Shown: positions 4,939-55,492 of the stretch, piece by piece
Layout: each line of letters starts with the position of its first letter
Numbering within the stretch: position 1 is the stretch's first letter
Virus record (IMG/VR): IMGVR_UViG_3300043446_000899
Location: 9,159-73,158 of that record
DNA: 64,000 bases
From: a virus
Reading direction: 5' to 3' (one strand)
The notes under the pieces: model-generated
What the model was told of the DNA's origin: nothing
Database searches by the model: none
What the model saw: only the letters and a program-made list of their open reading frames with translations
Made by a program: the position numbers and the translations under genes

Positions 4939-4940
4939 AG

Positions 4941-7511: not shown

Positions 7512-7597
7512 GATATAAGAATTAGCAAATGTAATTTAAATTATTATAAATACCAAGAGTTTTAACTGTTTTGATTAACTTGGTATAACTGAATTGA

Positions 7598-35876: not shown

Positions 35877-38459
35877 TTATTTGGTTTTCTTACTAGCTCT
35901 GTTCTTAGCGTTCATTTGTGCAATCTTCAAATCATTAACTTGATTCTCTCTAGCCACTTTTAATTTTTCTTTTTCTACGGCTATCTTTTGAGCAGCTAAT
36001 GAGCTTTTAGATTGAATATCAGCCATTTTTAATTGATAGTCATTTGCAGCTTTTGATTGTTCATGAGATAACTTATCAATCTCTAATGCATCAGGAATGT
36101 TATTCATATCTGCATCTGGTAATCCACCTTTAGCCTCAGCTGCAATGATTGCAATTTCTTTCTTATTAATTCTATCCAACTCATTTTGGTAATCCTGATG
36201 AGCAAGCTCTTGTTCATGTTGTTGTTGAGCGGCAGCAATTTGTTGGTCAGCAATTTGTTTTTGTTGCTCCATTTGTTGCTGTTGTTGTTGCATTTGTTGA
36301 TCCTGAAGTTGCTCTTGACGGTCTTTAAGAGTCTTGAACACCTTCTTCATCTGACGGATAGAGTTAGTGCTGTAAAGCTCAATGATATCGTGCAATGATC
36401 CACCATTTTGTAGAACAGCTTGAGACAATCCACGAATTTCTTGGAACATCTTCTGATCTTCAGGTCTGTTAGTTAAATATACTTTTAAGTCACGGAACTT
36501 AAGATCATTACCATTAACCTGTACAAATGCAGACTCTCCTTCATTAGTAATGTAAGAGATTGTTGACTCAGGCTTTTTAGATTCTACATATAATGATGCA
36601 TCAATGATTGCTTGGTACAACTGACCTAATACATACTCATGTGCAACAAAGATGGGTTCTGTTTGAGAGTATGATTGTGTAATAGCTGTGTTTGTACCTG
36701 TAGCAGATTCACTAGCTGACACAGATCCTAAACGCTGCTTTGACATACCAATCAATTCCCAACACTCATTCTTCAATTGTTGTGCCAAAGTATATCTTGA
36801 CTGAATCTCTTGTGTACGTGTGAGGTCAATATCACGGAACTGGTTAAATGATGATGGGCTCTTCAAGTTTTCAGGGCTGTCATCAATAAACATTACACCA
36901 CGGTTACGTGCTTCCATTTCCCAAATATCCAATGCATCTTGAGCATCACCATCTTTAGGAATAGGAATATGTCTAATAGATGTTAAATACACCTTACCCA
37001 CTTCTTTCTCTAATAGCTTGTATAACTGATTCATACAAACGTTGTAAAGAACTTGGAACGGTTTCATCATGTCTACTAAGCTCTTAGCTTCTGTATTTTT
37101 GATTTCATGAACCAATCCAATGATAGGGCAATAAGGTAATAACTTAAATGGTTTAATGTGATAGATGTCTGGACCAATCTTAATACCCTGATACCATTGG
37201 TTAATCCAACCCCACTCTAATGAAATCTCTGTAGGAATAGTACCAGATTTATAAGTCTCATCTACAAGCATAGATTGTTCATTACCTAACTCATCTGTAT
37301 AGATAAGCTTACCAATCTTCTTCTTAGAAATCCAGTATGTACGTACAACAACATACTTATATCCAAATGAGCTTACATTAGAGGTAAGTCCTAAGAAGTC
37401 TTTCAAGCCATCATTGTTCTCTTTCATCTCAGACTCAATAACCATTCTAGTCTGAAGAACTAATGGGTCATATGTATCATATTGTACAGAGTCTTGACCT
37501 GGAATAGCATTAGGATTACCAAGGTTAGATTCACGTACGTTGATCAAACCATAATCCTGTAATGAACTACGTAAGTGATCAATTTCTTCTTTGGTTAAGT
37601 CTGGGATAGATTCAATAATCTCTGACAATTCCATAACTTGTACAGTACCAGCAGCATATGCTCCTTGTGCTCTACCTGTAGGATCTGAAATATACTTTCT
37701 ATCTGGTGTAGTTAAGAAGTAAGTGTTTTTAGGGTTAGCCACCTCTACATTAAATCCCACCTTAGAGTTATCTTCATATACATGATAGAACTCTCTAGAT
37801 GAAATTAATAAATCTCTGAATGCGTCTTCAGATTTCTCTTTAAGAATAAATTCTGCCTTCTGTGCTGTAAGAACGTGGTTAGCCCACTTCTCAGCTACAG
37901 ATGTATAGCTATCAAGTTGATCTTGAACTTGATCCATTGTCATTTGCTGTAAATCTTCATCAGCAATTTCTTCTCCTCTCTCAGCAGCTTGTTGTTGTAT
38001 TTTAGCCTTAGCTTGACTGATTACATATTCTTGTAATATACCAGTTTTAAATTCTAACTCTTCTGCCTTACTATCATCATCAAAAGCTTTCACACGGAAA
38101 GCATCTGGTCTTTTAGAAATCTCACCTACAAGTTCATTGATAGGAGTGGTTAAAATAGAATAATGTTTTACATATGCAGGAAGCTGCAAGTCAGCTGTTA
38201 GCATATCTGTAAAACTTCTCACCTCAGGTTCTTGATAGAAATCCTCATGTCTCAAGATACCCTTTACTAAATCATAGTTCTTAACAAACGTGTCACGGTT
38301 CTTTACATACTCAGCATAAGCCTTGTTTGCAAAGTAGTCCATAGTATTCTTTATCCAACTCTCATCCATCTTCTCCTTTTCAGTTTTAAACTGGTCAGGG
38401 AAAATGTTTAAGTAGGCATACCTGATTGTTGCGTCTTTTGTATATCTTATAATTGCCAT
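35877..38459 (-). CDS. portal protein (candidate, 860 aa)
   Basis: Immediately downstream of TerL with a 1-nt overlap. Size and position typical. Gln-rich coiled-coil C-terminus. Confidence 0.5.
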   Translation of the reverse strand: MAIIRYTKDATIRYAYLNIFPDQFKTEKEKMDESWIKNTMDYFANKAYAEYVKNRDTFVKNYDLVKGILRHEDFYQEPEVRSFTDMLTADLQLPAYVKHYSILTTPINELVGEISKRPDAFRVKAFDDDSKAEELEFKTGILQEYVISQAKAKIQQQAAERGEEIADEDLQQMTMDQVQDQLDSYTSVAEKWANHVLTAQKAEFILKEKSEDAFRDLLISSREFYHVYEDNSKVGFNVEVANPKNTYFLTTPDRKYISDPTGRAQGAYAAGTVQVMELSEIIESIPDLTKEEIDHLRSSLQDYGLINVRESNLGNPNAIPGQDSVQYDTYDPLVLQTRMVIESEMKENNDGLKDFLGLTSNVSSFGYKYVVVRTYWISKKKIGKLIYTDELGNEQSMLVDETYKSGTIPTEISLEWGWINQWYQGIKIGPDIYHIKPFKLLPYCPIIGLVHEIKNTEAKSLVDMMKPFQVLYNVCMNQLYKLLEKEVGKVYLTSIRHIPIPKDGDAQDALDIWEMEARNRGVMFIDDSPENLKSPSSFNQFRDIDLTRTQEIQSRYTLAQQLKNECWELIGMSKQRLGSVSASESATGTNTAITQSYSQTEPIFVAHEYVLGQLYQAIIDASLYVESKKPESTISYITNEGESAFVQVNGNDLKFRDLKVYLTNRPEDQKMFQEIRGLSQAVLQNGGSLHDIIELYSTNSIRQMKKVFKTLKDRQEQLQDQQMQQQQQQMEQQKQIADQQIAAAQQQHEQELAHQDYQNELDRINKKEIAIIAAEAKGGLPDADMNNIPDALEIDKLSHEQSKAANDYQLKMADIQSKSSLAAQKIAVEKEKLKVARENQVNDLKIAQMNAKNRASKKTK

Positions 38460-40498
38460 TATGTAAACAATTTATTTCTTTTATATTTATTGTTAGAGGT
38501 TCCAAACATCCCACCTCTTGATTCTGTAAACAGTATGTTTCCTTTCTTCTTACTGAACATTGCCTTCACTCTATCATCAGATGTTCCACCAATCTTACCC
38601 ATAATAGGGTCCATCTTAAGAGCTTGTGCAATAGCTAGCTCAGCAGCAATGATACGGTCAAAGTTACCTTGATCATTGTATTGGATAATCTCTTCAAGCA
38701 ATACAGGATCAAATATCTTACTCACACCTAACACCTCTCTTATAGTATCACCAGCTTCATTAGTTTCTTTGAATATTACAGACTCCATATACTTCTTTAA
38801 GCAGGTATGAAGATACTCAATTATTTTGTCACTTGAACGGTGAATTCCATAATCTCTTTTAACTGTTGTGTTTGGAACAATTTCTTTAAGCCATTCAGGT
38901 TGCTTCTCTAAGTAGTGAGCATCCCCTTTGGCTTTCATATATTCTATGAATGATATATCATCATTCTCACACAGTGTTCTAGCATTATAATACTTAATAA
39001 GCAATCTAGCTTGTTCTTCCCAAGTTTCTTTCTTATCAGGTCTAGCACAATACGAAGCTACGAACATATCCTGATATTTCTCACCACTAATTTCATGCAT
39101 CCTCTTATATATGTATACAGACCCAAGTGAACTTGAATATGCAGACTTACCTTGTCTGTAGGGGTCAACTCCTGCTACATACAATCCATAAGGTGGATTT
39201 TCTACAGGGAATTCATATATAACTACAGGAGCATCCTTTGTATCACTATTCTTAAGAGGGAAGTTAGTGATAGGAAGCTTGTCTGTAAACTCATGTTCTA
39301 CACCACTCTCTCCAGAGAACAATATAACAGGAGTTCCTGTTCTTTCTTGTTGTAACAATCTAGTTTTCTGTCTCTTAGCTGATTCAATATCAAAGATGTT
39401 TGTATCCTCGTTAAGGAATATGTCATCCACTTCCATAGGATAGTACATCTTTTCCTTTAAATATGCTATTCTGTCTCCAGCTTTCTTAAGTCTTTCTAGA
39501 TTAGTTTCTGTAATTTGTCTAGCTCTCTCTTCATCTCCTACCAACATCTCAATGTTGTATAGATCAGATCCAACAGGCTCATCTAAAAATGCACCTAATG
39601 TAGATTTCTCCTTTGCCTCCATTCTATATTTAGCTGGGATGAACAATCCGTGTACACGTTTATCATCTTTGGCATTATTATATGTAAGGAAATTAAAGTT
39701 ATCTACGTCAAACATCAAGGACTTAGCATCCTGAAATTTCTTCATGTCACCACCAGTACCTGTAAGAATTGGAGAACATCCCCAACCATAGGGTGTAGTG
39801 AAACCAGGAATAGCTGCCTGTAAGCCTCTAAGGAAATTACCTTTACCAATCTCATCTATAATTAGTTTACGTGGTTTTGTACCTGCAATTGCCTCTTCAT
39901 TATTACCTTCATCAAGGTTACGTATTAGGATGGAAGAGAATGGGATACGTTCACCAGACTTGGTTTTAATACCTAATGTGACCTGGTTTTTCCAGTTGTC
40001 CTCAATCCTCTGCCATCTCCAATACTCAGGGATAAAGTTTAATCCTTTATCTATTTTATCCGTAATAAGTTTAATATCTGGTGCATTCAAACCAGCAATA
40101 ATGTTCTGGGAGTTCTCATCAAATGTTGCACCCCATGCAATATAGGATGCTTCAAGAACGGACTTAGCAAAACGTCTAATACCTAGAATAACCAAGCCCT
40201 TTTTTTCCTGTTGGGCCCTGTCAATTTCGTTTGTTACCAGCCACTCATTATCTCTCAAAAACGGATTTGCATATTTTTGTGCAATTCTTCCTCTATCATC
40301 AATAACATCCACCTCTGTATGCCAGATGTTTAGGTGCCAATACAAAAAGGGGTTGATATACACACCCCCCATCATAGCACCGTTCAAGCATAACTCTCTA
40401 TGAAAATCATAAAAAGGTTTACATTCAGCAGAGTCCTTATCAGGAAGTCTCTTCTGATTGATGAACCAGTCTTTATAATCTATATTCTGTAGTTGCAT
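38459..40498 (-). CDS. terminase large subunit
   Basis: ATPase Walker A-like LGIRRFAKS, Walker B LIIDEIG, and a C-terminal nuclease-sized domain. 679 aa. Confidence 0.7.
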   Translation of the reverse strand: MQLQNIDYKDWFINQKRLPDKDSAECKPFYDFHRELCLNGAMMGGVYINPFLYWHLNIWHTEVDVIDDRGRIAQKYANPFLRDNEWLVTNEIDRAQQEKKGLVILGIRRFAKSVLEASYIAWGATFDENSQNIIAGLNAPDIKLITDKIDKGLNFIPEYWRWQRIEDNWKNQVTLGIKTKSGERIPFSSILIRNLDEGNNEEAIAGTKPRKLIIDEIGKGNFLRGLQAAIPGFTTPYGWGCSPILTGTGGDMKKFQDAKSLMFDVDNFNFLTYNNAKDDKRVHGLFIPAKYRMEAKEKSTLGAFLDEPVGSDLYNIEMLVGDEERARQITETNLERLKKAGDRIAYLKEKMYYPMEVDDIFLNEDTNIFDIESAKRQKTRLLQQERTGTPVILFSGESGVEHEFTDKLPITNFPLKNSDTKDAPVVIYEFPVENPPYGLYVAGVDPYRQGKSAYSSSLGSVYIYKRMHEISGEKYQDMFVASYCARPDKKETWEEQARLLIKYYNARTLCENDDISFIEYMKAKGDAHYLEKQPEWLKEIVPNTTVKRDYGIHRSSDKIIEYLHTCLKKYMESVIFKETNEAGDTIREVLGVSKIFDPVLLEEIIQYNDQGNFDRIIAAELAIAQALKMDPIMGKIGGTSDDRVKAMFSKKKGNILFTESRGGMFGTSNNKYKRNKLFT

Positions 40499-41996: not shown

Positions 41997-42351
41997 GGCT
42001 CACCGTTATTTGTAAGACGATGTCCTTCTCAAAGTCTAGTATGATGACTGGGTTGACCTTCACCTTGGTACCGTCCTTGACAAACACCCCAATCTTCTTT
42101 AGCTTGGAGATGATGTTGTTGATGGTTGGGGGCGAGCTTTTGTACTTCTCACAGAACTCAGCACGAATGTTGGCATAGGAGATGTTACCTTTGATGGCTG
42201 TGAAAGCAATCAACTGCACCTCACGTTCTGTCAATCCAAGACCATTCACAGCTGACAGTATATGATAGTACTTCTCAGCCACAGCGTAGGAATCCCCCAC
42301 TGGTCTCTTCATCTTCTGAACAATTAGCCTCTTGTTTTCTGTTGGTTCCAT
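41989..42351 (-). CDS. hypothetical protein (120 aa) with elevated GC relative to neighbours; first gene of the leftward arm
   Basis: Local GC ~43-45% against ~33% around it. Preceded by the Bacteroidota-type promoter. Confidence 0.45.
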   Translation of the reverse strand: MEPTENKRLIVQKMKRPVGDSYAVAEKYYHILSAVNGLGLTEREVQLIAFTAIKGNISYANIRAEFCEKYKSSPPTINNIISKLKKIGVFVKDGTKVKVNPVIILDFEKDIVLQITVSHG

Positions 42352-42363
42352 AATTAGTTAAAG

Positions 42364-42394
42364 CAAAGGTATGTATATTCCTTTGATTCTCAAA
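42364..42394 (-). promoter_or_regulatory. Bacteroidota-type sigma-A promoter (TTTG-N19-TACCTTTG) for the leftward arm
   Basis: Minus strand reads TTTG agaatcaaaggaatataca TACCTTTG, with the -7 element ending 11 nt before the ATG of the gene at 42351. Confidence 0.4.
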
Positions 42395-42517
42395 TAACTA
42401 TTTTAGTTATCTAGAATAGGAATGCTATATTATGCACTATTTTTATAACCTATATAGTTATAACCCTAAAATTGTACATACTATATAAGCTGTTTAGATA
42501 AGTGGTGATTCTTAGGA

Positions 42518-42536
42518 CCCCCCCTAAATCCCCCCC
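42518..42536. repeat. two C7 homopolymer tracts separated by TAAAT
   Basis: ggaCCCCCCCtaaatCCCCCCCaaag within an otherwise AT-rich control region. Confidence 0.5.
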
Positions 42537-42799
42537 AAAGTTACAAAGACTTTTTTGAAACTACCAAATTTATTTTCTGCAAGGGATTATAATTCCGGTA
42601 CAGCACCATATTATAACATCCCTTATAAGGAACAACTTAAGGCTATGATGGGTCATATAAGTCAAGTTATAGGTTTACTATTTACTGTATATAGTAAAGA
42701 CATAGCTTGACAAACCAGGAAGCAAAAAGCTGCCAAAACAGGAAGTGACTGGAGCCATGGTTCCACGTGGAACAATTTCTAAAATTTTTTTTCCAATGC

Positions 42800-42883
42800 C
42801 TATACCCCCCATGTTGATGGGAGAGGAGGCTACTCCTACCAGATACCCCACCTGTGAATTGAGAAGTTGGGGATACCCCTCCT
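42800..42883 (+). promoter_or_regulatory. three direct repeats (T/G)ATACCCC-NN-(A/C)TG upstream of the first rightward gene (operator/promoter candidates)
   Basis: TATACCCCCCATG (~42800), GATACCCCACCTG (42841), GATACCCCTCCTG (42871). Spacings of 41 and 30 bp. Confidence 0.4.
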
Positions 42884-42956
42884 GATCGTTGACAATACAA
42901 TCAAATTACAATTAAACAAAAAACCTTATGGTGTTTAGGTCAACCAACCAATTATT

Positions 42957-43397
42957 ATGGCTTTACCACAATTCCAAGCTTACCAAAGACAAGCAACCGC
43001 TACTACATTAGTTAATAACGGTACTGTAAGAGACTTAATGACTGAGAAAGGTGCATTAGGTTTGATTCCATCTAACTTAAAGCGTGAGACTAAGTTGAAT
43101 GCTAAGGGCGAAATGGTTTACAATCGTGTCTTAGTGTTAGTGTACAATGGCAAGATTGCTGAAAATGGACAACCTGAGTCTATCAGCATTAGTTGTTCTG
43201 AGTCTGTTAGTAGAGACTTAAGAGCTAAGAACATCACATTATCTGAGTTAGCAGACTATTCCATCTTAGAAGATGAGAATGGAATCAATTACATCAGTAT
43301 GCCAGGAACAGGTGTTGTTAAGTACAATGCTTCTGAATTGAAGACTGTTGCTGTTAGTACAAAAGCAACTAACTATCAAGACTTAATTGCATTGTAA
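42957..43397 (+). CDS. hypothetical protein (146 aa), first rightward gene, followed by a strong terminator
   Basis: ORF followed by the terminator at 43410-43445. Confidence 0.6.
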   Translation: MALPQFQAYQRQATATTLVNNGTVRDLMTEKGALGLIPSNLKRETKLNAKGEMVYNRVLVLVYNGKIAENGQPESISISCSESVSRDLRAKNITLSELADYSILEDENGINYISMPGTGVVKYNASELKTVAVSTKATNYQDLIAL

Positions 43398-43409
43398 TTA
43401 GTTAATTAA

Positions 43410-43445
43410 CAAGGGGATAGAGCAATCTATCTCCTTGTTTTTATA
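43410..43445 (+). terminator. rho-independent terminator
   Basis: AAGGGGATAGAG-caat-CTATCTCCTT followed by GTTTTTAT. Confidence 0.55.
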
Positions 43446-43624
43446 CATAGGGTGGGCATATGATACATATATAGGGTTGGGCTTTTAAAAACACACTGAT
43501 AATCAACACTTTAATGTAAGTGTGAGAATAGGTGTGTGACCATAGATAGGTTATCACAGTAAAAATATACATTCATCAATCATGCTATACAATTAAATAT
43601 ATATAGCATTAAATACACAATCAC

Positions 43625-43855
43625 ATGAACTTAATCAAACACCTTGCAAACATTTTTGCACTATGGACTATACCATATGTTATAGTCTTATTCTTTATGC
43701 TTATTACAGGATTTGCTTTCACTTATAGTGAAGCTGTACGTTCTGAGGTGTTCATTGTCGTGTCGTTCTTCTACAATGTATTATCATTCATTACATATGT
43801 AGCATTGGGACATGATGAGGAATTTGATTCCATTAAAGTATTTAAAACCAAGTAA
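43625..43855 (+). CDS. small membrane protein (76 aa, two predicted TM helices)
   Basis: Hydrophobic stretches LANIFALWTIPYVIVLFFMLITGFAF and FIVVSFFYNVLSFITYVAL. Confidence 0.5.
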   Translation: MNLIKHLANIFALWTIPYVIVLFFMLITGFAFTYSEAVRSEVFIVVSFFYNVLSFITYVALGHDEEFDSIKVFKTK

Positions 43856-43857
43856 TT

Positions 43858-44019
43858 ATGAAAAAGCAATTACCTACATTACTAGCATGGTTCTTTGCTA
43901 CACTATTAATTATAGTGTTAATGTCATCATGCACAGTTATTAAGACTACATGTCCTTCAACAGATCCACAATTCTGGTACAAGCAAGCACATGTTAAACC
44001 ACATTATTACAAGCGTTAG
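43858..44019 (+). CDS. small lipoprotein-like ORF (53 aa; signal peptide ending ...LMSSC), not in the ORF track
   Basis: ATG 2 nt after the preceding stop. Translates MKKQLPTLLAWFFATLLIIVLMSSCTVIKTTCPSTDPQFWYKQAHVKPHYYKR. Confidence 0.35.
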   Translation: MKKQLPTLLAWFFATLLIIVLMSSCTVIKTTCPSTDPQFWYKQAHVKPHYYKR

Positions 44020-44112
44020 TATATTCTTTTAGTTATTAGCCTTTAGCGTACCAAAGGTAAGAATATACATTATTACAGGAGTTTATCTGTTCTACTTCAT
44101 TGAATAGAGGCT

Positions 44113-44139
44113 TTATGGTGAGGCCAAACCATATCTTTT
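44113..44139 (+). terminator. candidate terminator hairpin
   Basis: TATGGT-gaggccaa-ACCATA followed by TCTTTTT. Confidence 0.3.
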
Positions 44140-44181
44140 TACACAACACATTGATTATTAATCTATTAACACACATCGTTT

Positions 44182-44421
44182 ATGAAAAAATTTGAATTAC
44201 TACTTGGCATCTTTATGATTGTCATAACAACATCGTTGGATATACTATTTCCAATGATTGTTCCATTTAGTGCTAGTAATCTAGCATTGATATGTATATT
44301 ATCTGCAATAGGATATATGACTGGCTATTTGCTAGTTGATAGTCATATCTGCAGAGTTGAAACACATTATTATGTCAAAGGATATAATGATGGATTAGAA
44401 GACGCACATTTAAATAAATAA
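44182..44421 (+). CDS. small membrane protein (79 aa, two TM helices)
   Basis: LLLGIFMIVITTSLDILFPMIV and LALICILSAIGYMTGYLLV. Confidence 0.5.
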   Translation: MKKFELLLGIFMIVITTSLDILFPMIVPFSASNLALICILSAIGYMTGYLLVDSHICRVETHYYVKGYNDGLEDAHLNK

Positions 44422-44426
44422 AACAA

Positions 44427-44834
44427 ATGAAACACACATTTTACAAAGAAAACGGATTATGGTATATTGATTTACCAGAGTTCTTAGAAGCAGGTTTAGG
44501 CACTACAGCTAATTTATTAATGGTAGATGGTGCTGATACATTCTTAGACTATTTATCTAATAATGGTAATAGAGTGTCTATTGAAATGGACGTAAAGCCA
44601 TTTGATGGTCATACACATACATTAAACAAAATTGATATGGGTAAGAACCAATCATTATTAGATGCAATTGGTCATGCACCAGTTGATTACGGTGCGTATT
44701 ACTCTGTACCTGAGCACAACAATCACCATTTGTGGTTGTGTCCTGTAACAGAATATGTATTTGGTGGAAACTATCCAGATAACATTTACATTCAAGTAGT
44801 ACCAAGATTTAACCTAACTAAGAACCCACAATAA
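44427..44834 (+). CDS. hypothetical protein (135 aa)
   Basis: ORF 5 nt after the previous gene. Confidence 0.5.
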   Translation: MKHTFYKENGLWYIDLPEFLEAGLGTTANLLMVDGADTFLDYLSNNGNRVSIEMDVKPFDGHTHTLNKIDMGKNQSLLDAIGHAPVDYGAYYSVPEHNNHHLWLCPVTEYVFGGNYPDNIYIQVVPRFNLTKNPQ

Positions 44835-44843
44835 TATAGCATT

Positions 44844-45095
44844 ATGAAAGAAGTTATCGTATTAGGGGCAAAGATTATGCCCATGAATGAAATCATTGAA
44901 CAGCTTGAAGAAGCAATAGCTGAATACAAGCTTGATGATTCTAATAAGAAGGCTGAAGGAGCAATTGTTTTATTCTCACAGATGTTTGCATTAAAATGTC
45001 TATTGGATAGAGGTGAATCTGTATCATCTATACTAGCAGGACTAGAAGGTGAAGATAGTTTACCAAGCATGTTAAAACGTATGTCTAAAAACTAA
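44844..45095 (+). CDS. hypothetical protein (83 aa)
   Basis: ORF in the early region. Confidence 0.45.
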   Translation: MKEVIVLGAKIMPMNEIIEQLEEAIAEYKLDDSNKKAEGAIVLFSQMFALKCLLDRGESVSSILAGLEGEDSLPSMLKRMSKN

Positions 45096-45305
45096 CAATT
45101 AATAGTTATGAAAACAATACAACTAACTCCTCAAGAATTCTATATATTTAAAGTGGTAGCAAAGTTTAAATATAGGATACAAAGAATTAAACACACATCA
45201 GTCTTCATAGAGGCTGATACAAAAGATTTGGCTTTAATAGGTTATTAGATGTGTGTGTGTTGGTAAATATAGGGCTCAGCTTCCCCCAGCTGGGTCCTTA
45301 TTTAT

Positions 45306-45932
45306 TTGTTATTCATTATTAAAAATACGAATATGTTTATAAGAGCAAAACTAGTGTTTGAATCCTATCTACCTGAAGAACTACAACCAGGTATGTGGTT
45401 TAAACAACAAATCACAGACACAATATATGGTAAAAGATATACATATGATAGAATCTTTCAATTGTTTCACAAACCACAAGACCCAGATGCATATATAGCA
45501 GAAAATGGTTGTCCTGTTAATCCTATCATTGTGTCCATCACAGCTAATGCTGATGCAAGAGCAGAAGTGCTAGCTTATCCTTATCAAATAGGTTGGTGGG
45601 ATGATGGACCTGATTCTGATGAGCTTAGAGATATAGAGCTCAAAGATATCAATACGATATTATCAGACTATGAAGGTGAATTGGATATAGAAGTGGTTGA
45701 TGAAGCTATGGAAGATGATCTAGCTGTTCCTATAATATATATGGACAAGGTAACAATCAGATTACCATGGGATGAAGATGATTACTTGTATGAGCAAGAT
45801 GATTATCCTGAAGACGAAGAAGATTGGGATGACATAGATGATTGGACTCATGATGAACCAGACACAGACAGTGCAGGTTTTACATCAGAAGATAGATGTC
45901 CAAGATATGATTCTGATCATGAGACAGAATAA
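45306..45932 (+). CDS. hypothetical protein (208 aa) with strongly acidic C-terminal half
   Basis: DEDDYLYEQDDYPEDEEDWDDIDDWTHDEPDTD. Confidence 0.5.
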   Translation: MLFIIKNTNMFIRAKLVFESYLPEELQPGMWFKQQITDTIYGKRYTYDRIFQLFHKPQDPDAYIAENGCPVNPIIVSITANADARAEVLAYPYQIGWWDDGPDSDELRDIELKDINTILSDYEGELDIEVVDEAMEDDLAVPIIYMDKVTIRLPWDEDDYLYEQDDYPEDEEDWDDIDDWTHDEPDTDSAGFTSEDRCPRYDSDHETE

Positions 45933-45963
45933 TCAAATTAATTAATCTCTAATTAAACCAATT

Positions 45964-46203
45964 ATGAAAAAGGTATTAGATTTATTGTACAAAGACAAAG
46001 CTCCTGAAGACAGACCAAAGATATGTGTAATCAAAACAAAATCTACTGTCATGCCAGATGAGCAATTGACTTATGAACAATGGGCTGCTGAATACAGGGT
46101 TGGTATTGCTTGGTACAATAACGGATCAACAGATAACGCTCACAACATGATGAGTCTGTATGATGATGCAGCTATGTCTGAGCATATAAAGAACAAGAAA
46201 TAA
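45964..46203 (+). CDS. hypothetical protein (79 aa)
   Basis: ORF. Confidence 0.45.
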   Translation: MKKVLDLLYKDKAPEDRPKICVIKTKSTVMPDEQLTYEQWAAEYRVGIAWYNNGSTDNAHNMMSLYDDAAMSEHIKNKK

Positions 46204-46243
46204 ATAACAAATCTAGAAAACAAAAAGTCAAAACACAGAAAGC

Positions 46244-46975
46244 ATGAAAATTCAAACTTTAACAAAAAACAGCAAACAGTCATTCTCTTATTTAGCAGGT
46301 ATTAATAGACCTATTAATCCTTCTCAAGTGACTAAATTAGCAAATTCAGTAAACAAGATGGGCATCATTAGACCAGTTGTAATATCTGAGTTAGCATTTA
46401 TTGATGGTAAGAAGAAACCATATATCATTGATGGTCAACACTTATTCAATGCATTGATTAGAAATAATATGGATATTCCATACGTATCAATTGATATAAA
46501 GGATAAAAAAGAGTTAGTAGAGAAGATTGCATTGTTAAATGCATCATCTAAAAACTGGGCAATGGTTGATTATGTAACAGCATGGGCATCATTAGTGCCT
46601 GATTATGTTAAGTTAAATCATTATTTCCAAGTGTATGATTTTGAAATCAGTTTTCTTGCAGGAGTATTATTAACTCTTCCAAGTGCTGATACAGGATCTG
46701 CAGGTAGAAAGATTAAATCAGGTGAGTTCAGAATCTCAAATGAGAAAGAGAATGTACAAATCCTTGATTATGTTACAGACATGTTAAAAGTTGTTCCTAG
46801 AATGAACAGATTTGAGAATAAATATGCTTGTTCAGAGTATGTTAAGTTCTTGAGAGTGACTAAAAACTATAATCACAAGAAGTTCATATCAAATCTAGAG
46901 AAGAACAAGAAACAGTTTGTAATGGCTACACATGAAGAAGGTAAATTGTCTGAATTGTTCACAAAATTAAAATAA
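46244..46975 (+). CDS. ParB-N/DGQHR-like domain protein (243 aa)
   Basis: PYIIDGQHLFNALIRN resembles the ParB/Srx/DndB-type DGQHR core, with the Arg replaced by Leu. Confidence 0.4.
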   Translation: MKIQTLTKNSKQSFSYLAGINRPINPSQVTKLANSVNKMGIIRPVVISELAFIDGKKKPYIIDGQHLFNALIRNNMDIPYVSIDIKDKKELVEKIALLNASSKNWAMVDYVTAWASLVPDYVKLNHYFQVYDFEISFLAGVLLTLPSADTGSAGRKIKSGEFRISNEKENVQILDYVTDMLKVVPRMNRFENKYACSEYVKFLRVTKNYNHKKFISNLEKNKKQFVMATHEEGKLSELFTKLK

Positions 46976-46981
46976 CAACAC

Positions 46982-47218
46982 ATGGCAACATTAATTTATT
47001 CCACTAGAATGCATTCAAGAGATAGTATTCTTACTTATGATCCAATGGCTGGTATAGATCATGCTATTGATAAGCTAATTGATACAGTATTTAACAGACC
47101 AACTACAGCTGCTGCAGCTAACAGATTGGTGATCCAAAATGGACGCTACATGTATACACCATCAAATGAGTATACAAAAGTTAAATCAAGATTTATCAGA
47201 GCAAAATTCAATAGATAA
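46982..47218 (+). CDS. hypothetical protein (78 aa)
   Basis: ORF. Confidence 0.4.
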   Translation: MATLIYSTRMHSRDSILTYDPMAGIDHAIDKLIDTVFNRPTTAAAANRLVIQNGRYMYTPSNEYTKVKSRFIRAKFNR

Positions 47219-47337
47219 TGATATATTTAGTTATCTTTGTTCTATTTTCAATCATCATTTGGATGTCCTATGAATTTCATAGGGCTCCAATGATGGATGA
47301 AGATGGTAACATCATCAACAAGAAAAAATAAGACTTT

Positions 47338-47755
47338 GGGGGTGTATTGGATTTGATCCACATGAGATGGGTAGTATCACATGCAAGCCTTGGAACAGGT
47401 AAACAAGTTCTAAACAATAACCGTAAAGAGTCAATCTGAGCGTGTTGCAGAAGGAGCTAGCATCATTGCTATGGCCTTCGCTTCTGAGGTAGCAGTAGCT
47501 GCCTAAGGCAACTGGGTGGTAACAACCTGGAAACAGAAAGTTACAAGAGTTTTCTCTGTAGTCATATAAACAGAGTGGTGGTAGAAAGCAGACCCTGCGA
47601 TCCCATTACGGTGCAAATACTTGTCTTAACAGACGGATGGAGAAACAGAAGGATAAAAGTTACTAACCACACCCTTCAGTATTAGTACTAAGCATGTAAG
47701 AACGGTATTACGTATACTTGTGGAGACAGGGGTTCAACTCCCCTCACCTCCACCA
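47338..47755 (+). ncRNA. ssrA: tmRNA (ssrA-like), phage-encoded; tag reading frame ~47447-47506 ending ...ASEVAVAA-stop
   Basis: 5' GGGGGUG-UAUU-GGAUUUGAUCC (cf. E. coli GGGGCUG-AUUCU-GGAUUCGAC). 3' GGGGUUCAACUCCCC-U-CACCUCC-ACCA with an encoded CCA. A 7-bp acceptor stem with one G.U pair. ~418 nt ORF-free gap between protein genes. Internal frame GCA GAA GGA ... GUA GCU GCC UAA. Confidence 0.55.
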
Positions 47756-47782
47756 ATTTTAAACAATTAAACAAACACAAAC

Positions 47783-48094
47783 ATGGCAAAAAGTAAACTT
47801 CCAGCACTTAAAGATTTAAGTGGCTATTTCTTTATGGCAATCCAAGGTGAAAACATAGAAATCATAATGCATGATAATACACCTAGAAACGCAGCAATTG
47901 GTGCAGCATTGGCTACAGTAATGCAAGATGATGATAAGTTTTTTGATCTAATGAGTGCTGCATTATTAACAGTTATTGAAAGAAAAGAAAAAGATTCTAA
48001 TTGGGAAAGAGTAAAATTTTCTCAAAAAGAGAAATCTATTTCTAAAAAGAGCAATATAGTGCCTAAGAAAACAGCATCTAAGCCTAAGAAATAA
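47783..48094 (+). CDS. hypothetical protein with Lys-rich C-terminus (103 aa)
   Basis: ORF. Confidence 0.45.
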   Translation: MAKSKLPALKDLSGYFFMAIQGENIEIIMHDNTPRNAAIGAALATVMQDDDKFFDLMSAALLTVIERKEKDSNWERVKFSQKEKSISKKSNIVPKKTASKPKK

Positions 48095-48111
48095 ATATTA
48101 GATTTGGTAGT

Positions 48112-48717
48112 GTGAAATATATTTCATATATTTGTAGCATGAATCAATATTTAATATATGGACTTAGATGTCCCAAAACAGATGACTACAAATATATAGG
48201 TAAAAGTAGTTCAGGATTAGAAAGAGCCAAAGCTCATTTAACGTATTCACATAATGAATCAGTGAATCATTGGGTAGCTGAGTTAAGAGAGCAAGGTTTT
48301 TGTCCTTTAATAGATGTACTTGAAGAGTGTTTAGAAGAAGATTTGCAGATAAAAGAGCACTTCTGGATACAATATTATACAGCTAGAGGATGTAAGCTAA
48401 TGAATTCTATATTCTATAGAGGTGCAGCGATAGAAAAACTTGAACAACAAGTTGCTGAAGCTCAGAAAGAATTAGATGCAACATTAAATAAAGTGCTTGA
48501 CACTATTAATGAACTACGCACTATTAATGGCTTTATCAAACATATAAGAAAGACAAGAGGCTTAACACAGCAAGATTTATCAGAGATGGCTGGTATTACA
48601 TCAAGAACATTAACTGATATTGAGCTAGGAAAAGGCAATCCTTCTTATGCTACTATTGAGAAGCTATTAGATATATTGGGATATAAATTAACACCAACAT
48701 TAAAAAACTCAGTATAA
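48112..48717 (+). CDS. GIY-YIG nuclease domain fused to an XRE-type HTH (homing-endonuclease-like or regulator)
   Basis: YLIYGLRCPKTDDYKYIGKSS...RAKAH matches the GIY-x10-YIG-...R...H pattern. C-terminal LTQQDLSEMAGITSRTLTDIELGKGNPSYATIEKLLDILG matches an XRE HTH. Confidence 0.55.
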   Translation: MKYISYICSMNQYLIYGLRCPKTDDYKYIGKSSSGLERAKAHLTYSHNESVNHWVAELREQGFCPLIDVLEECLEEDLQIKEHFWIQYYTARGCKLMNSIFYRGAAIEKLEQQVAEAQKELDATLNKVLDTINELRTINGFIKHIRKTRGLTQQDLSEMAGITSRTLTDIELGKGNPSYATIEKLLDILGYKLTPTLKNSV

Positions 48718-48772
48718 ATACTTAATGATACATTATTGTATTTAAGTAATTTTGTACAAAAACAAATAACCT

Positions 48773-49012
48773 ATGAAAACAGCAATGCAAGAATTGATAG
48801 AAGATTTGTCAAATAATATGGTTATATCAATATTTGAAAGACTTGAAAGGGAAGGAATGTTTATTAAAGCACTTGAAAAAGAAAAAGAGCAGATAATAAA
48901 TGCTTATGAAGATGGATATGAGGCTTGTGATATGGATGAAGTTATGGAAGTAAATAAAAAGCTAACAAGCGGAGATTTATATTACAATATGAATTATAAC
49001 CAAAACAAATAA
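48773..49012 (+). CDS. small protein, paralogue A (79 aa, MKTAMQELIE...NQNK)
   Basis: N-terminus and the EKEKEQI core are shared with the next ORF. Confidence 0.5.
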   Translation: MKTAMQELIEDLSNNMVISIFERLEREGMFIKALEKEKEQIINAYEDGYEACDMDEVMEVNKKLTSGDLYYNMNYNQNK

Positions 49013-49015
49013 CCT

Positions 49016-49228
49016 ATGAAAACAGCAATGCAAGAACTAATTGAGTTATTAGAACTTAATACAACAAACGAGCCTTTACCACATTTGATTGATGTTATTA
49101 AAGAGGTTTATATTGAAAAAGAAAAAGAGCAGATACAAGAATGGTATGCAAAAGGTTGGGAAGAAGCTACAAAAATTGGTATTGAAGAATCACATAAATA
49201 CCAAGATTTAATTAACCAAAACAAATAA
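49016..49228 (+). CDS. small protein, paralogue B (70 aa, MKTAMQELIE...NQNK)
   Basis: Paralogous to the ORF at 48773..49012. Confidence 0.5.
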   Translation: MKTAMQELIELLELNTTNEPLPHLIDVIKEVYIEKEKEQIQEWYAKGWEEATKIGIEESHKYQDLINQNK

Positions 49229-49231
49229 CCT

Positions 49232-49387
49232 ATGAAATGTTATGTAGTAGTATCTTGCAGTATAAATGAAGGATATTATTTTAATAATTCTTATGTCTTT
49301 AAAAACAAAATGGATGCTGAAAAGTATATTGAACAATTAGACAGTGAAGATACTTTTGATATAGTAGAATTAAATTTTATTGATTAA
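49232..49387 (+). CDS. small ORF (51 aa) preceded by the same junction repeat; not in the track
   Basis: MKCYVVVSCSINEGYYFNNSYVFKNKMDAEKYIEQLDSEDTFDIVELNFID. Confidence 0.35.
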   Translation: MKCYVVVSCSINEGYYFNNSYVFKNKMDAEKYIEQLDSEDTFDIVELNFID

Positions 49388-49400
49388 AAACAAATAACCT

Positions 49401-49619
49401 ATGAAATGGGAAATAACAAATAATAGACCAAACCTTGGTGATGTTAGATTCAAAACTAGATTTGCATTCCTTCCAACACGTGTTCTTAGCAAGTTAACAA
49501 TGACTGATCATTGGATATGGTTAGAATTATATGTTGCTGAGCAAGTGTACTCTTCATGTAATGATGGATGGGACTATTGGGAAGAGTGGAAAACTGTAGC
49601 TAAAACAATACACATATGA
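49401..49619 (+). CDS. hypothetical protein (72 aa)
   Basis: ORF with the junction repeat at its start. Confidence 0.45.
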   Translation: MKWEITNNRPNLGDVRFKTRFAFLPTRVLSKLTMTDHWIWLELYVAEQVYSSCNDGWDYWEEWKTVAKTIHI

Positions 49620-49846
49620 GACAATTAATAATTGTGGCAATATGTATACTGATAATGTTTTACATTGCTGTGGGTGACAACAAACAGCTAGGTGAACAGC
49701 AACAGGTAATAGATTCACTACAGCAAGAACTATATATTACTAATATAAACCTTAGTAGATATGAAATGACTCTTGAGCTATTATCAGAACAAGATAGTTT
49801 ATCTGCAGTAAAATTTGATAGTATATACACTAACGAAACAGAATAA
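49616..49846 (+). CDS. small membrane-anchored protein (76 aa)
   Basis: N-terminal LIIVAICILIMFYIAV. Confidence 0.45.
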   Translation: MRQLIIVAICILIMFYIAVGDNKQLGEQQQVIDSLQQELYITNINLSRYEMTLELLSEQDSLSAVKFDSIYTNETE

Positions 49847-50007
49847 TGGCAACAAAAATAGAAAAACAGGTACAATTTAACGATTGGGCACGTAAATTTG
49901 CAGTGTCTTCACTATGGGACAATGAAAAGTTTGAGAACAAACAGTTCATAAGGCAATTAGATGAAGCAAGACCAATTTATGAAGCTAAACGAAATAAACG
50001 AAACTAA
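49846..50007 (+). CDS. small ORF (53 aa), not in the track
   Basis: ATG overlaps the preceding TAA. Ends 2 nt before the polymerase ATG. Confidence 0.3.
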   Translation: MATKIEKQVQFNDWARKFAVSSLWDNEKFENKQFIRQLDEARPIYEAKRNKRN

Positions 50008-50009
50008 TT

Positions 50010-51962
50010 ATGAATATACTCATCTATGACATAGAAACCATGCAGGAGCTGTTTCTAGTTTGTATATATAATCCTGAGACACAGCAATGGCATGAATTCC
50101 AGGTGAGTAAGAATACAAACCAGATTGATGCATTTGTTAGGTTTACAGAAGATTACAAAGACTTCTATTGGGTAGGTTATAACAATCTACGCTTTGACAG
50201 TCAAGTAGTTGAGTGGATCATACGCACTCATCAAGATTGGCATGAATTAGGTGCATTAGAAGTAACTGCATTAATAGCTCAGAAAGCTGCAGATGTTATA
50301 CATGATGCTAACTATGATGTATTCCCTGAATATAGAGAGGAATGGTTACACAACAAACAGATAGATTTATTCAGAGTGAACCACTATGATAACAAGAATC
50401 GTAGAGTGAGCCTGAAGAGACTAGAGTTTGAGATGGACCTAGAGAACATAGAAGAGATGCCTATACATCACACCAAGACAAACATGACAGATGAAGAAAT
50501 TCAGCTGACTATTGAGTATTGTCGTAATGATATATATGCAACCTATGAGTTCTACAAAGTAACAACAGGTGATACAGATCATCCATTGTACAAGGGCAAT
50601 AATCAAATAGAGCTCAGACAAGATATTGAAGAAGAGTTTGGTATACCATGTCTTAACTATTCTGATAGTAAGATTGGTGACGAGATGATTAAGAAATATT
50701 ATTGTCAAGAGAAAGGTATACAATATGGTGATCTACCAAAGAAAGGATATTTTCGTAAGGAAGTGAAGGCCAAGAATTGTATAGCTGATTATGTAGCATT
50801 CCAGACACCAGAGCTGCAACAGTTCTTAAAACATGTACAAAAGCAAGTATTTACACTCACTGATGATTTTAAAGAGTCATTAGAATTCTATGATAATGTA
50901 TATACGTTTGCCAAGGGTGGTTTACATACAGAAAACAAACCTAAAATATTTGAAGCTGATGAAGAAACTCTTATTGTGGATTGGGATGTCTCCTCTTATT
51001 ATCCTGCTATTATTATTAACAACAATCGTTACCCTCAGCATTTGGGCCGTGAGTTTCTTAAGGGCTACAAGCAGATGTTTGAGAAAAGATTGGAACTTAA
51101 GCCTCTGGCTAAGAAAGATAAAAAGATTAAAGGTATTGTTGGTGCTCTCAAGCTTGCTGTTAATAGTGTGTACGGTAAATCTAGTGATATGCAGTCATGG
51201 ATCTATGATAGACAACTTACTATGTTTACTACTATCACTGGCGAGCTTAGCTTGCTTATGCTTATTGAAGCTTATGAACTAGCTAGTATACATGTTATAT
51301 CTGCAAATACAGACGGTGTAACTATCTCTGTAAAGCTTACGCATGTAGATAAGATGCATGAGATTAACAAATGGTGGATGGACATCACACAGTATGAACT
51401 AGAACGCACTGACTATTCTAAGATTATCTTCAGCACAGTTAATGACTATTTAGCAATTAAAACAGATGGAGAAATTAAAAAGAAAGGTGATTTTCTCACG
51501 GATTTTGAGCTGCATAAAAATAAGTCTGCTCGTATTGTTCCTATTGCTCTTGATAGATTTTATACAGAAGGTATACCTATTGATGAAACTATACGCAATC
51601 ATAAAAACATTTATGATTTCTGTCTAAGACAGAAGGCTAGTAAAGACTTTCATTATGAAGGTGTAGCTGGTACTAAGAGAACAGTGTACAATAAGCTTAT
51701 TCGTTATTATGTATCCAAAACAGGTGAGAAATTACTAAAAGTAAAGAATCCTGAATGTACTTCTAATGCTGCTGACGTATCTCAAGTGGAAGCAGGTGAA
51801 TGGGTGATGCATGTATGTAATCATCTAACACCAGATCATCCTCTAGATAACATTAACCACGCTTATTATATAGAGCGTGCTGAACGCATAGTTAGTAAGA
51901 TACAGTTTGAAGGTAAGAAACGTAAAATTATTGTTAATCCTAATCAAATGAGTTTATTCTAA
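50010..51962 (+). CDS. family B DNA polymerase with 3'-5' exonuclease (650 aa)
   Basis: ExoI IYDIET, ExoII YNNLRFDSQVV, ExoIII YCRNDIYATYEFY, motif A DWDVSSYYPA, motif B KLAVNSVYGKS, motif C variant ISANTDGVT. Confidence 0.75.
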   Translation: MNILIYDIETMQELFLVCIYNPETQQWHEFQVSKNTNQIDAFVRFTEDYKDFYWVGYNNLRFDSQVVEWIIRTHQDWHELGALEVTALIAQKAADVIHDANYDVFPEYREEWLHNKQIDLFRVNHYDNKNRRVSLKRLEFEMDLENIEEMPIHHTKTNMTDEEIQLTIEYCRNDIYATYEFYKVTTGDTDHPLYKGNNQIELRQDIEEEFGIPCLNYSDSKIGDEMIKKYYCQEKGIQYGDLPKKGYFRKEVKAKNCIADYVAFQTPELQQFLKHVQKQVFTLTDDFKESLEFYDNVYTFAKGGLHTENKPKIFEADEETLIVDWDVSSYYPAIIINNNRYPQHLGREFLKGYKQMFEKRLELKPLAKKDKKIKGIVGALKLAVNSVYGKSSDMQSWIYDRQLTMFTTITGELSLLMLIEAYELASIHVISANTDGVTISVKLTHVDKMHEINKWWMDITQYELERTDYSKIIFSTVNDYLAIKTDGEIKKKGDFLTDFELHKNKSARIVPIALDRFYTEGIPIDETIRNHKNIYDFCLRQKASKDFHYEGVAGTKRTVYNKLIRYYVSKTGEKLLKVKNPECTSNAADVSQVEAGEWVMHVCNHLTPDHPLDNINHAYYIERAERIVSKIQFEGKKRKIIVNPNQMSLF

Positions 51963-54049: not shown

Positions 54050-54644
54050 GGAGATTATTAAAGCTGGCTATACGCTAGATATGATTTATTTCCTTAAACT
54101 TGTGGAAGAAGGTGTTGATGTGGAAAGTATGTGCTCAGATCCAAAACTACAAATGCTTTGCCAGACAGTGAGAAGAAAGGGGCTATTATCAGAATCTTTC
54201 AAGCTCACTGTCATTGGTAAATCTGTATTAGGATTTCTAGATGAAGATGGTACACCAGAAACTAAATTAGTTAAGCAGAAAAAGAACGCTAATGATTTTG
54301 ATGAGTGGTGGAAAGCTTATCCAGGTACTGACACATTCACACACAAAGGACAATCTTTCACAGGTACTAGAAGCATGCGTGTAAAGAAAGATGACTGTAA
54401 GGTCAAGCTTTACAACATTCTATCTGAAGGTGAATACACTATCAAAGAAATGATAGCAGCTTTAGAATACGAAGTGCTTCAAAAGAAAGAGAATTCTGTA
54501 AAGACAAAGACCAATAGGTTGACATTTATGCAGAATAGTCTCACGTATCTAAATCAAAGAACATTTGAACCCTTCATTGAATTGATTAGAGAAGGTAAAA
54601 CGGTGGTTGAAGAACCAGTAGTAAGAGGAGGCACAGATATATGA
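54018..54644 (+). CDS. hypothetical protein (208 aa)
   Basis: ORF. Confidence 0.5.
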   Translation: MNITVTHYHFEEIIKAGYTLDMIYFLKLVEEGVDVESMCSDPKLQMLCQTVRRKGLLSESFKLTVIGKSVLGFLDEDGTPETKLVKQKKNANDFDEWWKAYPGTDTFTHKGQSFTGTRSMRVKKDDCKVKLYNILSEGEYTIKEMIAALEYEVLQKKENSVKTKTNRLTFMQNSLTYLNQRTFEPFIELIREGKTVVEEPVVRGGTDI

Positions 54645-55492
54645 AAATTATCAGACAAAGAACCAAAACTCTTGTTACAAGAGATAATGGTAGAAGTTCA
54701 GATGCTGTCACTCCAAACTTTGTATATGGTTGCTTAGGTGGATGTATGTCTTCTTATTGTTATGTAGGTAGATACAATAATGATAAAGTGTATCTAAATG
54801 AGAACACAGATGACATAATACAATCTATGGAACTATGGCTAGTTAAACAACCAGATGTAAAGATTCCTAATCAATGTGATGATAAATACTACACGCTTGA
54901 TATAGGCTGTAGTACAGATGTACCATTGATGTCCAAGCATTACAATTGGCAAGTGGTATTTGATTTCTTTAATACTCATCCAAAAGCCAAAAGCACCTTT
55001 GCCACTAAGTATCCTACAATGTTTAGACCAGAGAGATACACTCTGAACAAAGACAAGAATAGGATTAGAGTGAGTTTGATGCCTCAGAAGTATTCTGATA
55101 TATTAGAACCTAACACAGACTCTATATCAGATCGCATACAATCTATACCAAATCTGCAGAATTATATGGAAGTGCATATAAACTATAGCCCTATTATATA
55201 TGAAGAGGGATGGTTAGATGAGTATAGAAAGCTATTTCAAGAGGTGAAGGACGCAGGTATTGATGTTAAATGTGAATGTATATTCTTAACACACAATGTT
55301 CATCAGCATGCACGTAACAGTGATGCTGTACAAGAGTTGTTGTGGAAGCCAGATATACAGGAAGCAAAAGATTCAAGCTATGCTGCAGATAATATACGCT
55401 ATAAATGGCAATTGAAAAGAAATATGGTAGAACAGTTCAAAGAGTTGTATTCAGAATTCTTTGATGTATCAAATATACGTTACATATTTTAA
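54641..55492 (+). CDS. hypothetical protein with N-terminal Cys cluster (283 aa)
   Basis: FVYGCLGGCMSSYCYVGRY (a C-x3-C-x4-C arrangement). Not the canonical radical-SAM spacing. Confidence 0.5.
   Translation: MKIIRQRTKTLVTRDNGRSSDAVTPNFVYGCLGGCMSSYCYVGRYNNDKVYLNENTDDIIQSMELWLVKQPDVKIPNQCDDKYYTLDIGCSTDVPLMSKHYNWQVVFDFFNTHPKAKSTFATKYPTMFRPERYTLNKDKNRIRVSLMPQKYSDILEPNTDSISDRIQSIPNLQNYMEVHINYSPIIYEEGWLDEYRKLFQEVKDAGIDVKCECIFLTHNVHQHARNSDAVQELLWKPDIQEAKDSSYAADNIRYKWQLKRNMVEQFKELYSEFFDVSNIRYIF

Follow-up and report, generated by a model that had tools for sequence, protein, structure and literature searches.

A complete one-piece tmRNA-like gene in the replication arm of a freshwater tailed phage

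Does a segment with tRNA-like ends in a phage genome encode a working transfer-messenger RNA (tmRNA), or is it a decoy, a disused passenger or the attachment-site scar of a host gene? The question was raised by positions 47338-47755 (+) of a 64,000-nt stretch of viral DNA (IMG/VR record IMGVR_UViG_3300043446_000899, positions 9,159 to 73,158; hereafter the window), where an initial annotation made from the sequence alone had placed a complete tmRNA-like (ssrA-like) gene. All of the sequence features that it listed were present at those positions. Judged from the sequence and its relatives, the segment is probably a functional, phage-encoded, one-piece tmRNA, and it displays every testable defining feature of such an RNA except in the region of helix 5 (P5) and pseudoknot 4 (PK4), which is poorly resolved.

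Identification and structure of the RNA

The whole window was searched with ARAGORN and, at gathering thresholds, with all 4,227 Rfam families, the two tools that the initial annotation had named as its check. ARAGORN called a one-piece tmRNA at exactly 47338-47755 (+), the sole RNA gene called in the 64 kb, and the single Rfam match, RF00023 (tmRNA), covered the same interval end to end (74.1 bits against a gathering score of 47; E 6.4e-27; model positions 1-374 of 374, not truncated). Because both tools agreed on one interval, the latter at this E value, the resemblance is far beyond chance. No riboswitch was detected in the window in the same Rfam scan. The minimum-free-energy fold of the segment was more stable than its shuffles (z = -3.4; 0 of 100 shuffles as stable) and recovered the acceptor stem, the long P2 helix and the T-arm. 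The gene so delimited is complete at 418 nt including an encoded CCA; its first letters are GGGGGTGTATTGGATTTGATCC (5' end read as GGGGGTG TATT GGATTTGATCC) and its end is AGGGGTTCAACTCCCCT-CACCTCC-A-CCA.

Homologues were retrieved with a 26-nt signature from the junction of P2 and pseudoknot 1 (PK1), which returned 17 viral and 14 metagenome stretches; removal of duplicates left 16 distinct full-length homologues (L-numbers such as L011 and L113 are labels for retrieved related stretches). A secondary structure was written from the window sequence under guidance of the Rfam alignment and was counted on a MAFFT alignment of the 16. Across 70 named pairs, 87.1% of cells were paired, against 40-46% when partners were slid by 1-3 columns. 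Changes on both sides were found in 35 of the 70 pairs (117 cells), none of 500 shuffles reached any of five covariation measures, and the homologues differed at about 44% of columns. The structure was derived from one aligned sequence (and is favoured over the slid controls), and the 16 sequences are related; on this alignment the double changes are too numerous for single-sequence derivation or kinship to explain. The third acceptor pair, G3.U70, was kept in 16 of 16 while the adjacent pairs (4-7) changed on both sides. G3.U70 is the alanine identity pair. Since compensatory covariation, found in six helices, is accompanied by an invariant G3.U70, the gene is, on this alignment, under selection as an RNA, with purifying selection on its structure.

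The tRNA-like domain was as initially described. The acceptor stem (P1) joins GGGGGUG at 47338-47344 (+; G3 = 47340) to 47745-47751 in 7 bp, of which the third is the single G.U; it was 98% paired, with compensatory changes in four of seven pairs. Its 3' strand CACCUCC, the discriminator A and the genomically encoded CCA occupy 47745-47755 (+) in the sequence and in the RF00023 alignment, the last letter of the CCA being 47755. Some homologues encode the CCA, whereas the rest have CAA, CGU, CUU, CUG or CAU. The D-loop analogue UAUUGGAUUUGA (47345-47356, +) aligned to the Rfam consensus GAucuGGaUUCGA and carries the conserved GG...UUYGA feature, with G12, U16, G18 and A19 invariant across the 16 homologues. 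The T-arm, AGGGG-UUCAACU-CCCCU (GGGGTTCAACTCCCC; 47728-47744, +), was 100% paired and compensatory in three of five pairs. P2 pairs a 5' strand at 47357-47378 (+; P2a 47357-47362, P2b 47371-47378) with a 3' strand at 47704-47724 (+); in the covariation count P2a was 100% paired, with five of six pairs compensatory (e.g. UCCACA/UGUGGA vs CAGACA/UGUCUG), and P2b was 96.6% paired.

A check by folding for pseudoknots PK1 to PK4 had also been suggested, and it gave support in part. PK1 (47387-47411, +) is formed by 47387-47390 with 47397-47400 (stem 1; 87.5% paired, two pairs with changes on both sides) and 47392-47396 with 47407-47411 (stem 2; 88.8% paired, four such pairs), as in GGAAC/GUUCU in the window vs GGUAGA/UCUAUC in L044 and L011. 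PK2 (47512-47544, +) is formed by 47512-47517 with 47525-47530 and 47519-47523 with 47540-47544; both stems were ~83% paired with compensatory changes in each (e.g. GUAAC/GUUAC vs GCAAC/GUUGC). The PK3 position is taken by a conserved, covarying hairpin (CUCUGU...ACAGAG) followed by a conserved UGGUGG (47554-47575, +), the hairpin being 93.6% paired and compensatory in five of six pairs. These three covary, but the PK4 position is a variable module (47606-47687, +; columns ~400-500 of alignment A2), where Rfam shows an 85-nt insertion. With the tRNA-like domain present in both halves, along with PK1, PK2 and the tag frame, and the full model covered, the claim of a complete gene, and not a phage attachment-site (attP) fragment of a host ssrA, was upheld.

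The tag reading frame

The tag frame lies at 47423-47506 (+) and comprises 27 codons, VKSQSERVAEGASIIAMAFASEVAVAA, followed by UAA (47504-47506), without a start codon; with the alanine carried by the RNA, the tag would have 28 residues. Its resume codon, GUA at 47423-47425, was placed at tmRNA position 86 by both ARAGORN and the Rfam alignment, and 47423 is the most likely point at which this frame resumes. The initial annotation had read 19 codons (AEGASIIAMAFASEVAVAA plus stop; 47447-47506, +). That frame was right and corresponds to the C-terminal part, but 19 codons is too short: 47447 is tmRNA position 110, so that the reading had begun 24 nt (8 codons) past the resume codon. The tag, initially described as atypical, is long, but it ends in AVAA, which is of the ordinary degradation-tag type.

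Support for the longer frame came from the homologues. The codon aligned with the resume codon is GCA (L011, L102, L112), GAC (L099, L105, L118) or GUA. Directly before it stands a conserved frame-setting region, AAUAACC in the window (47416-47422, +) and AAUAAuU before GCa in the Rfam consensus; AAUAA(A/C)(C/U) was found at this place in most homologues (13 of the 15 listed), and the variants were AAUGAUC in L127 and L116 and AACAACC in three others. In the window, 11 nt separate the end of PK1 from the resume codon. Indels in the tag frame were all multiples of three, frame and resume position were kept in all homologues, and every homologue tag ends in AA and then a stop (AVAA-UAA in the window). 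The third tag codon is AGU (Ser) in the window and UCU (Ser) in L011, a swap of at least two position changes in which serine was preserved. The tool calls, aligned resume codon, upstream motif, in-frame indels and serine swap together set the tag at 27 codons, and the conserved frame, the alignment of the resume codon and the serine swap argue that it is translated.

Two types of tag were found in the lineage, one of 24-27 residues with the core (A/E)EG(A)SII(A/N)MAF and one of 23-24 residues with the core (D/E)(G/D)LMAFVG. Long tags of 24-32 residues, similar in layout, are also encoded by unrelated phage tmRNAs whose only shared sequence is the 27-nt 3' end. In an alignment of 16 tags, a near-invariant Phe stood ~9 residues from the end and the terminal AA was invariant; with sequences this short, the pattern is no more than a lead. 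The exact 27-nt T-arm/acceptor end was present in L081, L088, L091, L094 and L098 (IMG/VR contigs of 12-40 kb) and in L082, L087 and L092 (contigs of 53-170 kb). The tmRNAs of these contigs are otherwise unrelated, have very long acidic tags (24-32 residues, e.g. AEDNTSALLAEATYIINNADEFLVEEVYEMAA) and often stand beside tRNA arrays; in L082, L087 and L092 a probable tmRNA between tRNA-Ser and tRNA-Thr was missed by ARAGORN.

Distribution, genome context and rival explanations

A related DNA polymerase is encoded on 317 IMG/VR stretches, and among the best 80 of these the polymerase was 74-92% identical to that of the window, on contigs of up to ~118 kb (several of 112-118 kb). An exact search with the polymerase protein of the window matched no record. 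Carriers always have the homologous tmRNA upstream of the polymerase and, in loci with recognisable flanks, after a homologue of a 78-codon open reading frame (ORF) and a small hydrophobic neighbour; tmRNA-less relatives have small protein-coding ORFs in the slot instead. Carriers were scattered over polymerase identities from 74% to 92%, with a block of 85-86% relatives lacking the tmRNA. By this comparison the tmRNA is an accessory gene in a hypervariable slot. The signature (24 nt, with the last two bases dropped) and a second motif from the 3' body gave 0 matches in 185,579 genomes, one per bacterial or archaeal species. On these searches the lineage is found only in phage and metagenome sequence and is no recent copy of a sequenced host ssrA.

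The homologues are mosaics. L011 has the tag and 3' module of the window but a PK1 of the L044 type; at the PK4 position one module is common to the window and L011, a second to L026, L119 and L126, and a third to L001 and L002; PK1 types and tag types also reassort. Such module exchange points to frequent recombination within the gene. The copy in L117 (190-535, -) has a mismatched acceptor stem (GGGCCUG vs CACCUCC); recombination, a chimeric assembly or decay of the gene could each explain it. In L113 (= L123; IMGVR_UViG_3300028392_000477 / Ga0304729_1001544) a 677-nt group I intron (7377-8053; RF00028, 86 bits) interrupts the tmRNA (7007-8074, +) within its T-loop (…AGGGGUU | CGAAUCCCCU…). 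It carries a 134-aa LAGLIDADG homing-endonuclease ORF (7649-8053; PF14528, 25.2 bits, cut-off 22.5), and the 3' exon CGAATCCCCTCAGCTCCA starts at 8054; this split gene was called neither by ARAGORN nor by Rfam at the gathering threshold. An intron at the same T-loop position is reportedly present in a Clostridium tmRNA. A tRNA follows the tmRNA by ~3-7 nt in L105 (907-978, -), L107 (5892-5963, +), L102 (1304-1375, +) and L113 (8078-8149, +), an adjacency suggestive of joint transcription and processing.

The window belongs to a tailed phage, with terminase, portal, major head protein, tail fibres, polymerase and helicases, and the tmRNA lies, as initially described, in its early/replication arm on the same strand as its tightly packed neighbours. 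Upstream are a ParB-like protein (46244-46975, +; phrog_12305, E 4e-14), the 78-codon ORF (46982-47218), which has a homologue in relatives, and a hydrophobic 37-aa ORF (47218-47331, +), which ends 6 nt before the tmRNA, has no Pfam match and has small ORF homologues at the same place in relatives. Downstream are a 103-aa ORF (47783-48094, +) that starts 27 nt after the tmRNA and has no family match, a helix-turn-helix (HTH) regulator (48112-48717, +) and the DNA polymerase (50010-51962, +; phrog_1252, E 2e-139). The plus-strand arm, which begins at ~43 kb, also encodes a DnaB-like helicase, a second helicase and a UDG-family protein, and a GHKL-type ATPase ORF on this strand runs off the right end of the window. 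Scanning 42000-50100 for promoter-like and terminator-like sites was uninformative: they were no more numerous than in shuffles, and none adjoined the tmRNA; co-transcription with the neighbours is therefore only inferred. No tRNA gene was found in the window by ARAGORN, and no integrase was found among its scanned ORFs (Pfam, PHROG), in keeping with the initial remark that none lies nearby.

The minus strand encodes the large terminase (38459-40498), portal (35877-38459) and major head protein (32344-33897), together with tail-fibre proteins (including a collagen-like one) and large virion proteins. The terminase was 41% identical to that of Leptolyngbya phage Lbo-JY46, 33.5% to those of Cellulophaga phages phi4:1 and phi17:2 and 26-29% to those of crAss-like phages; the head protein matched only Lbo-JY46 (26%). 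The source is a freshwater phage distantly related to crAss-like, Cellulophaga and Flavobacterium phages; the sizes of related contigs put it in the ~115-kb class, and the window covers about half of a genome of that size. A Bacteroidota host is a reasonable guess from the G+C content of 35% and from the hosts of the terminase neighbourhood, most of which are Bacteroidota. Among 50,697 phage records there was no DNA match to the tmRNA by blastn (E 1e-5) or to the surrounding 20 kb by megablast; at a lax E value only 29-32-nt T-arm/acceptor matches to other phage tmRNAs and to attP sites appeared (E 3e-4 or weaker). The first 50 kb of Lbo-JY46, the nearest cultured relative, include the polymerase region and have no tmRNA.

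Elsewhere in the window, a very large minus-strand ORF of at least 1,646 aa at 1-4940 continues beyond the left end and explains a 4.9-kb stretch without a listed ORF, and for a second one at 14490-18983 (1,497 aa) the matches were to 'virion structural protein' PHROGs (phrog_37948, E 5e-107). Three proteins are unusual in a phage: an SPFH/Band 7 domain protein adjoining the portal gene (35344-35874, -; PF01145, E 1e-25), a spore-photoproduct-lyase-like protein (54641-55492, +; PF20903, E 7e-11) and a DUF6717 protein (44427-44834, +; E 8e-24).

Several observations count against a functional tmRNA. P5, around the stop codon, was only 57-74% paired in the alignment, and other homologues have unrelated modules in place of the PK4-position region. 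The resume codon GUA departs from the usual GCN, and variable sites in the tag frame number 10, 10 and 13 at codon positions 1, 2 and 3, a count that is indecisive alone. A homologous tmRNA was found in only six of 57 loci with at least 3 kb upstream of the polymerase, so the phage family can do without the gene. No SmpB was found in the window by Pfam and PHROG scans of ORFs or by tblastn with E. coli SmpB (an approximate query), a search that could miss a divergent SmpB and that covered about half of the genome. Compatibility with the SmpB, alanyl-tRNA synthetase and proteases of the host is assumed.

Other explanations were weighed against these data. The RNA might be a competitor or a re-targeting device that titrates host SmpB/tmRNA, gives its products another fate through the 28-residue tag or damps host trans-translation. 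Classic tmRNA tags have 10-11 residues, and the present tag is about three times as long; its interior, an EEGASIIAMAF-type core, is conserved in the lineage, and unrelated phage tmRNAs have tags of 24-32 residues that resemble it in layout and in a nearly invariant Phe. For titration there is the RNA of mycobacteriophage DS6A, which has little beyond the tRNA-like domain and for which SmpB titration has been raised as a possibility (PMC4131195). A pure decoy, however, would have no need of PK1, the resume region and the in-frame stop, all of which are conserved, and re-targeting sits poorly with a C-terminus (AVAA or ALAA) that is an ordinary ClpX-type ending and with family scans that recognised no phage adaptor or protease gene next to the tmRNA. 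Long tags are, moreover, generally known from the tmRNAs of some bacteria, and we regard a competitor or re-targeting role as unlikely. A bolder proposal, that the long tag is a phage-chosen signal redirecting rescued chains or that the RNA is a mobile counter-defence against ribosome-stalling or RNA-cleaving abortive infection, is rather doubtful; a mobile, exchanged accessory gene would fit the module shuffling and the homing-endonuclease intron in one relative's copy.

Decay or neutrality, in which a captured tmRNA gene is no longer used, could account for the patchy spread (6/57), the hypervariable slot, occupied by small ORFs in other relatives, and the mismatched acceptor stem of L117. 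It is nevertheless very unlikely in view of a structure kept by compensatory change in six helices, of G3.U70 unchanged although ~44% of columns differ, and of a tag frame intact in all homologues. The 3' ends of tmRNA genes are common attachment sites for temperate elements; the attP of Cronobacter phage phiES15 weakly matched the 3' end of the present gene, and the nearby ParB-like and HTH regulator genes would fit a temperate or plasmid-like lifestyle. An attP-type sequence or an imprecise-excision scar of a host ssrA is extremely improbable: the gene is complete from its 5' half through PK1 and the tag, no integrase was found among the ORFs scanned in the window, the two body motifs of the lineage were absent from all 185,579 reference genomes, and the gene evolves with covariation inside the phage lineage. 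The marks of an attP/ssrA fragment, namely a 3' part only, an adjacent integrase and a near-identical host ssrA, were not found in these searches. A functional phage-encoded tmRNA thus remains the preferred explanation.

Proposed role and comparison with known systems

The following steps are drawn from established tmRNA biology. The tmRNA would be transcribed together with its neighbour genes, cut at its 5' end by host RNase P and trimmed at its 3' end by host enzymes, with CCA added in relatives that do not encode it. Host alanyl-tRNA synthetase would charge it with alanine via G3.U70, and it would bind SmpB and EF-Tu of the host and enter ribosomes stalled on broken or stop-less mRNAs. Translation would resume at GUA 47423 and add alanine and the 27-residue tag ending in AVAA, the predicted products being truncated proteins joined to AVKSQSERVAEGASIIAMAFASEVAVAA. 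At UAA translation would terminate and the ribosome would be freed, and the tagged product would pass to host ClpXP-type proteases via its AVAA end.

Some phages, among them lambda-P22 hybrids and Mu, need host trans-translation. In the present phage the likely benefit would be extra ribosome-rescue capacity when host mRNA decay, nucleases or defence RNases stall many ribosomes; the gene is accessory in the phage family, and the benefit would therefore be conditional. The purposes put forward in the initial annotation, namely rescue during host shutoff, retargeted tagging and the countering of ribosome-stalling defences, are candidate roles. The same benefits have been offered, without tests, for other phage tmRNAs (PMC9004378, PMC7162821), and the literature consulted on their role holds hypotheses only, with no experimental study found (PMC4131195, PMC9004378, PMC7162821).

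Phage tmRNAs are established, rare and routinely annotated, and the window gene is a well-supported further example; since they are documented in phages including Crassvirales, it is a new example and not a new kind. They were counted in 402 of 18,146 phage genomes (2.3%; PMC9004378) and, by a routine annotation pipeline, in 7 of 788 gut viral genomes (PMC12291355). The gene adds a lineage of tmRNAs confined to phages, with at least 16 variants from an abundant freshwater phage group of ~115 kb, and provides a usable comparative set with clear covariation, an unusually long conserved tag and presence/absence among close relatives. Knowledge of trans-translation itself is unchanged.

With bacterial SsrA (RF00023) the gene shares the G3.U70 acceptor, D-loop analogue, T-arm, P2, PK1 and a startless tag frame ending in a hydrophobic AA, with pseudoknots downstream. 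It differs in being phage-encoded, in having GUA and not GCN as resume codon and a tag of 27 codons, in its exchangeable PK4 modules and in two lineage motifs that occur in no reference genome. Complete ssrA genes have been described in phages Bxz1, Cali, Catera, Rizal, ScottMcG, Spud, Wildcat and others and in Bacillus phage G; a tmRNA is present in eight mycobacteriophages (the Bxz1 group and Wildcat), with a domain-only version in DS6A (PMC4131195). Those RNAs are of an unrelated lineage, as are their phages and hosts, and gave no blastn match to ours; the complete ssrA, the lytic-type large-genome phages and a function without experimental demonstration are common to both.

Within Crassvirales, cr7_1 (L130; NC_055895.1, 2939-3295) and cr124_1 (L131; NC_055899.1) have annotated tmRNAs in RefSeq, which are circularly permuted two-piece RNAs (RF04321, 63-66 bits; the starred tmRNA class of ARAGORN) with tags of 13 residues, (D/G)NVNNIVDYTNVA; the cr7_1 annotation overlaps a predicted tRNA-Cys. 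A permuted two-piece form (RF04321) was considered for the window gene and rejected, as its parts stand in standard 5' to 3' order and only RF00023 matched. Both are phage tmRNAs, and those of Crassvirales belong to the broad crAss-like group to which the window phage is distantly related by its terminase. Marine myophages such as Melnitz carry a permuted tmRNA, found in 17 of 47 Melnitz-like contigs and reported with a glutamine riboswitch (PMC9004378). The window gene is likewise accessory in its phage group, but it is one-piece and no riboswitch was detected in the window. Huge phages (>200 kb) encode a tmRNA, often with SmpB and many translation genes (PMC7162821). The present phage differs from them in its ~115-kb class and in a 64-kb window in which neither a tRNA nor SmpB was found; in both, a virus-borne rescue RNA is read as support for translation during infection.

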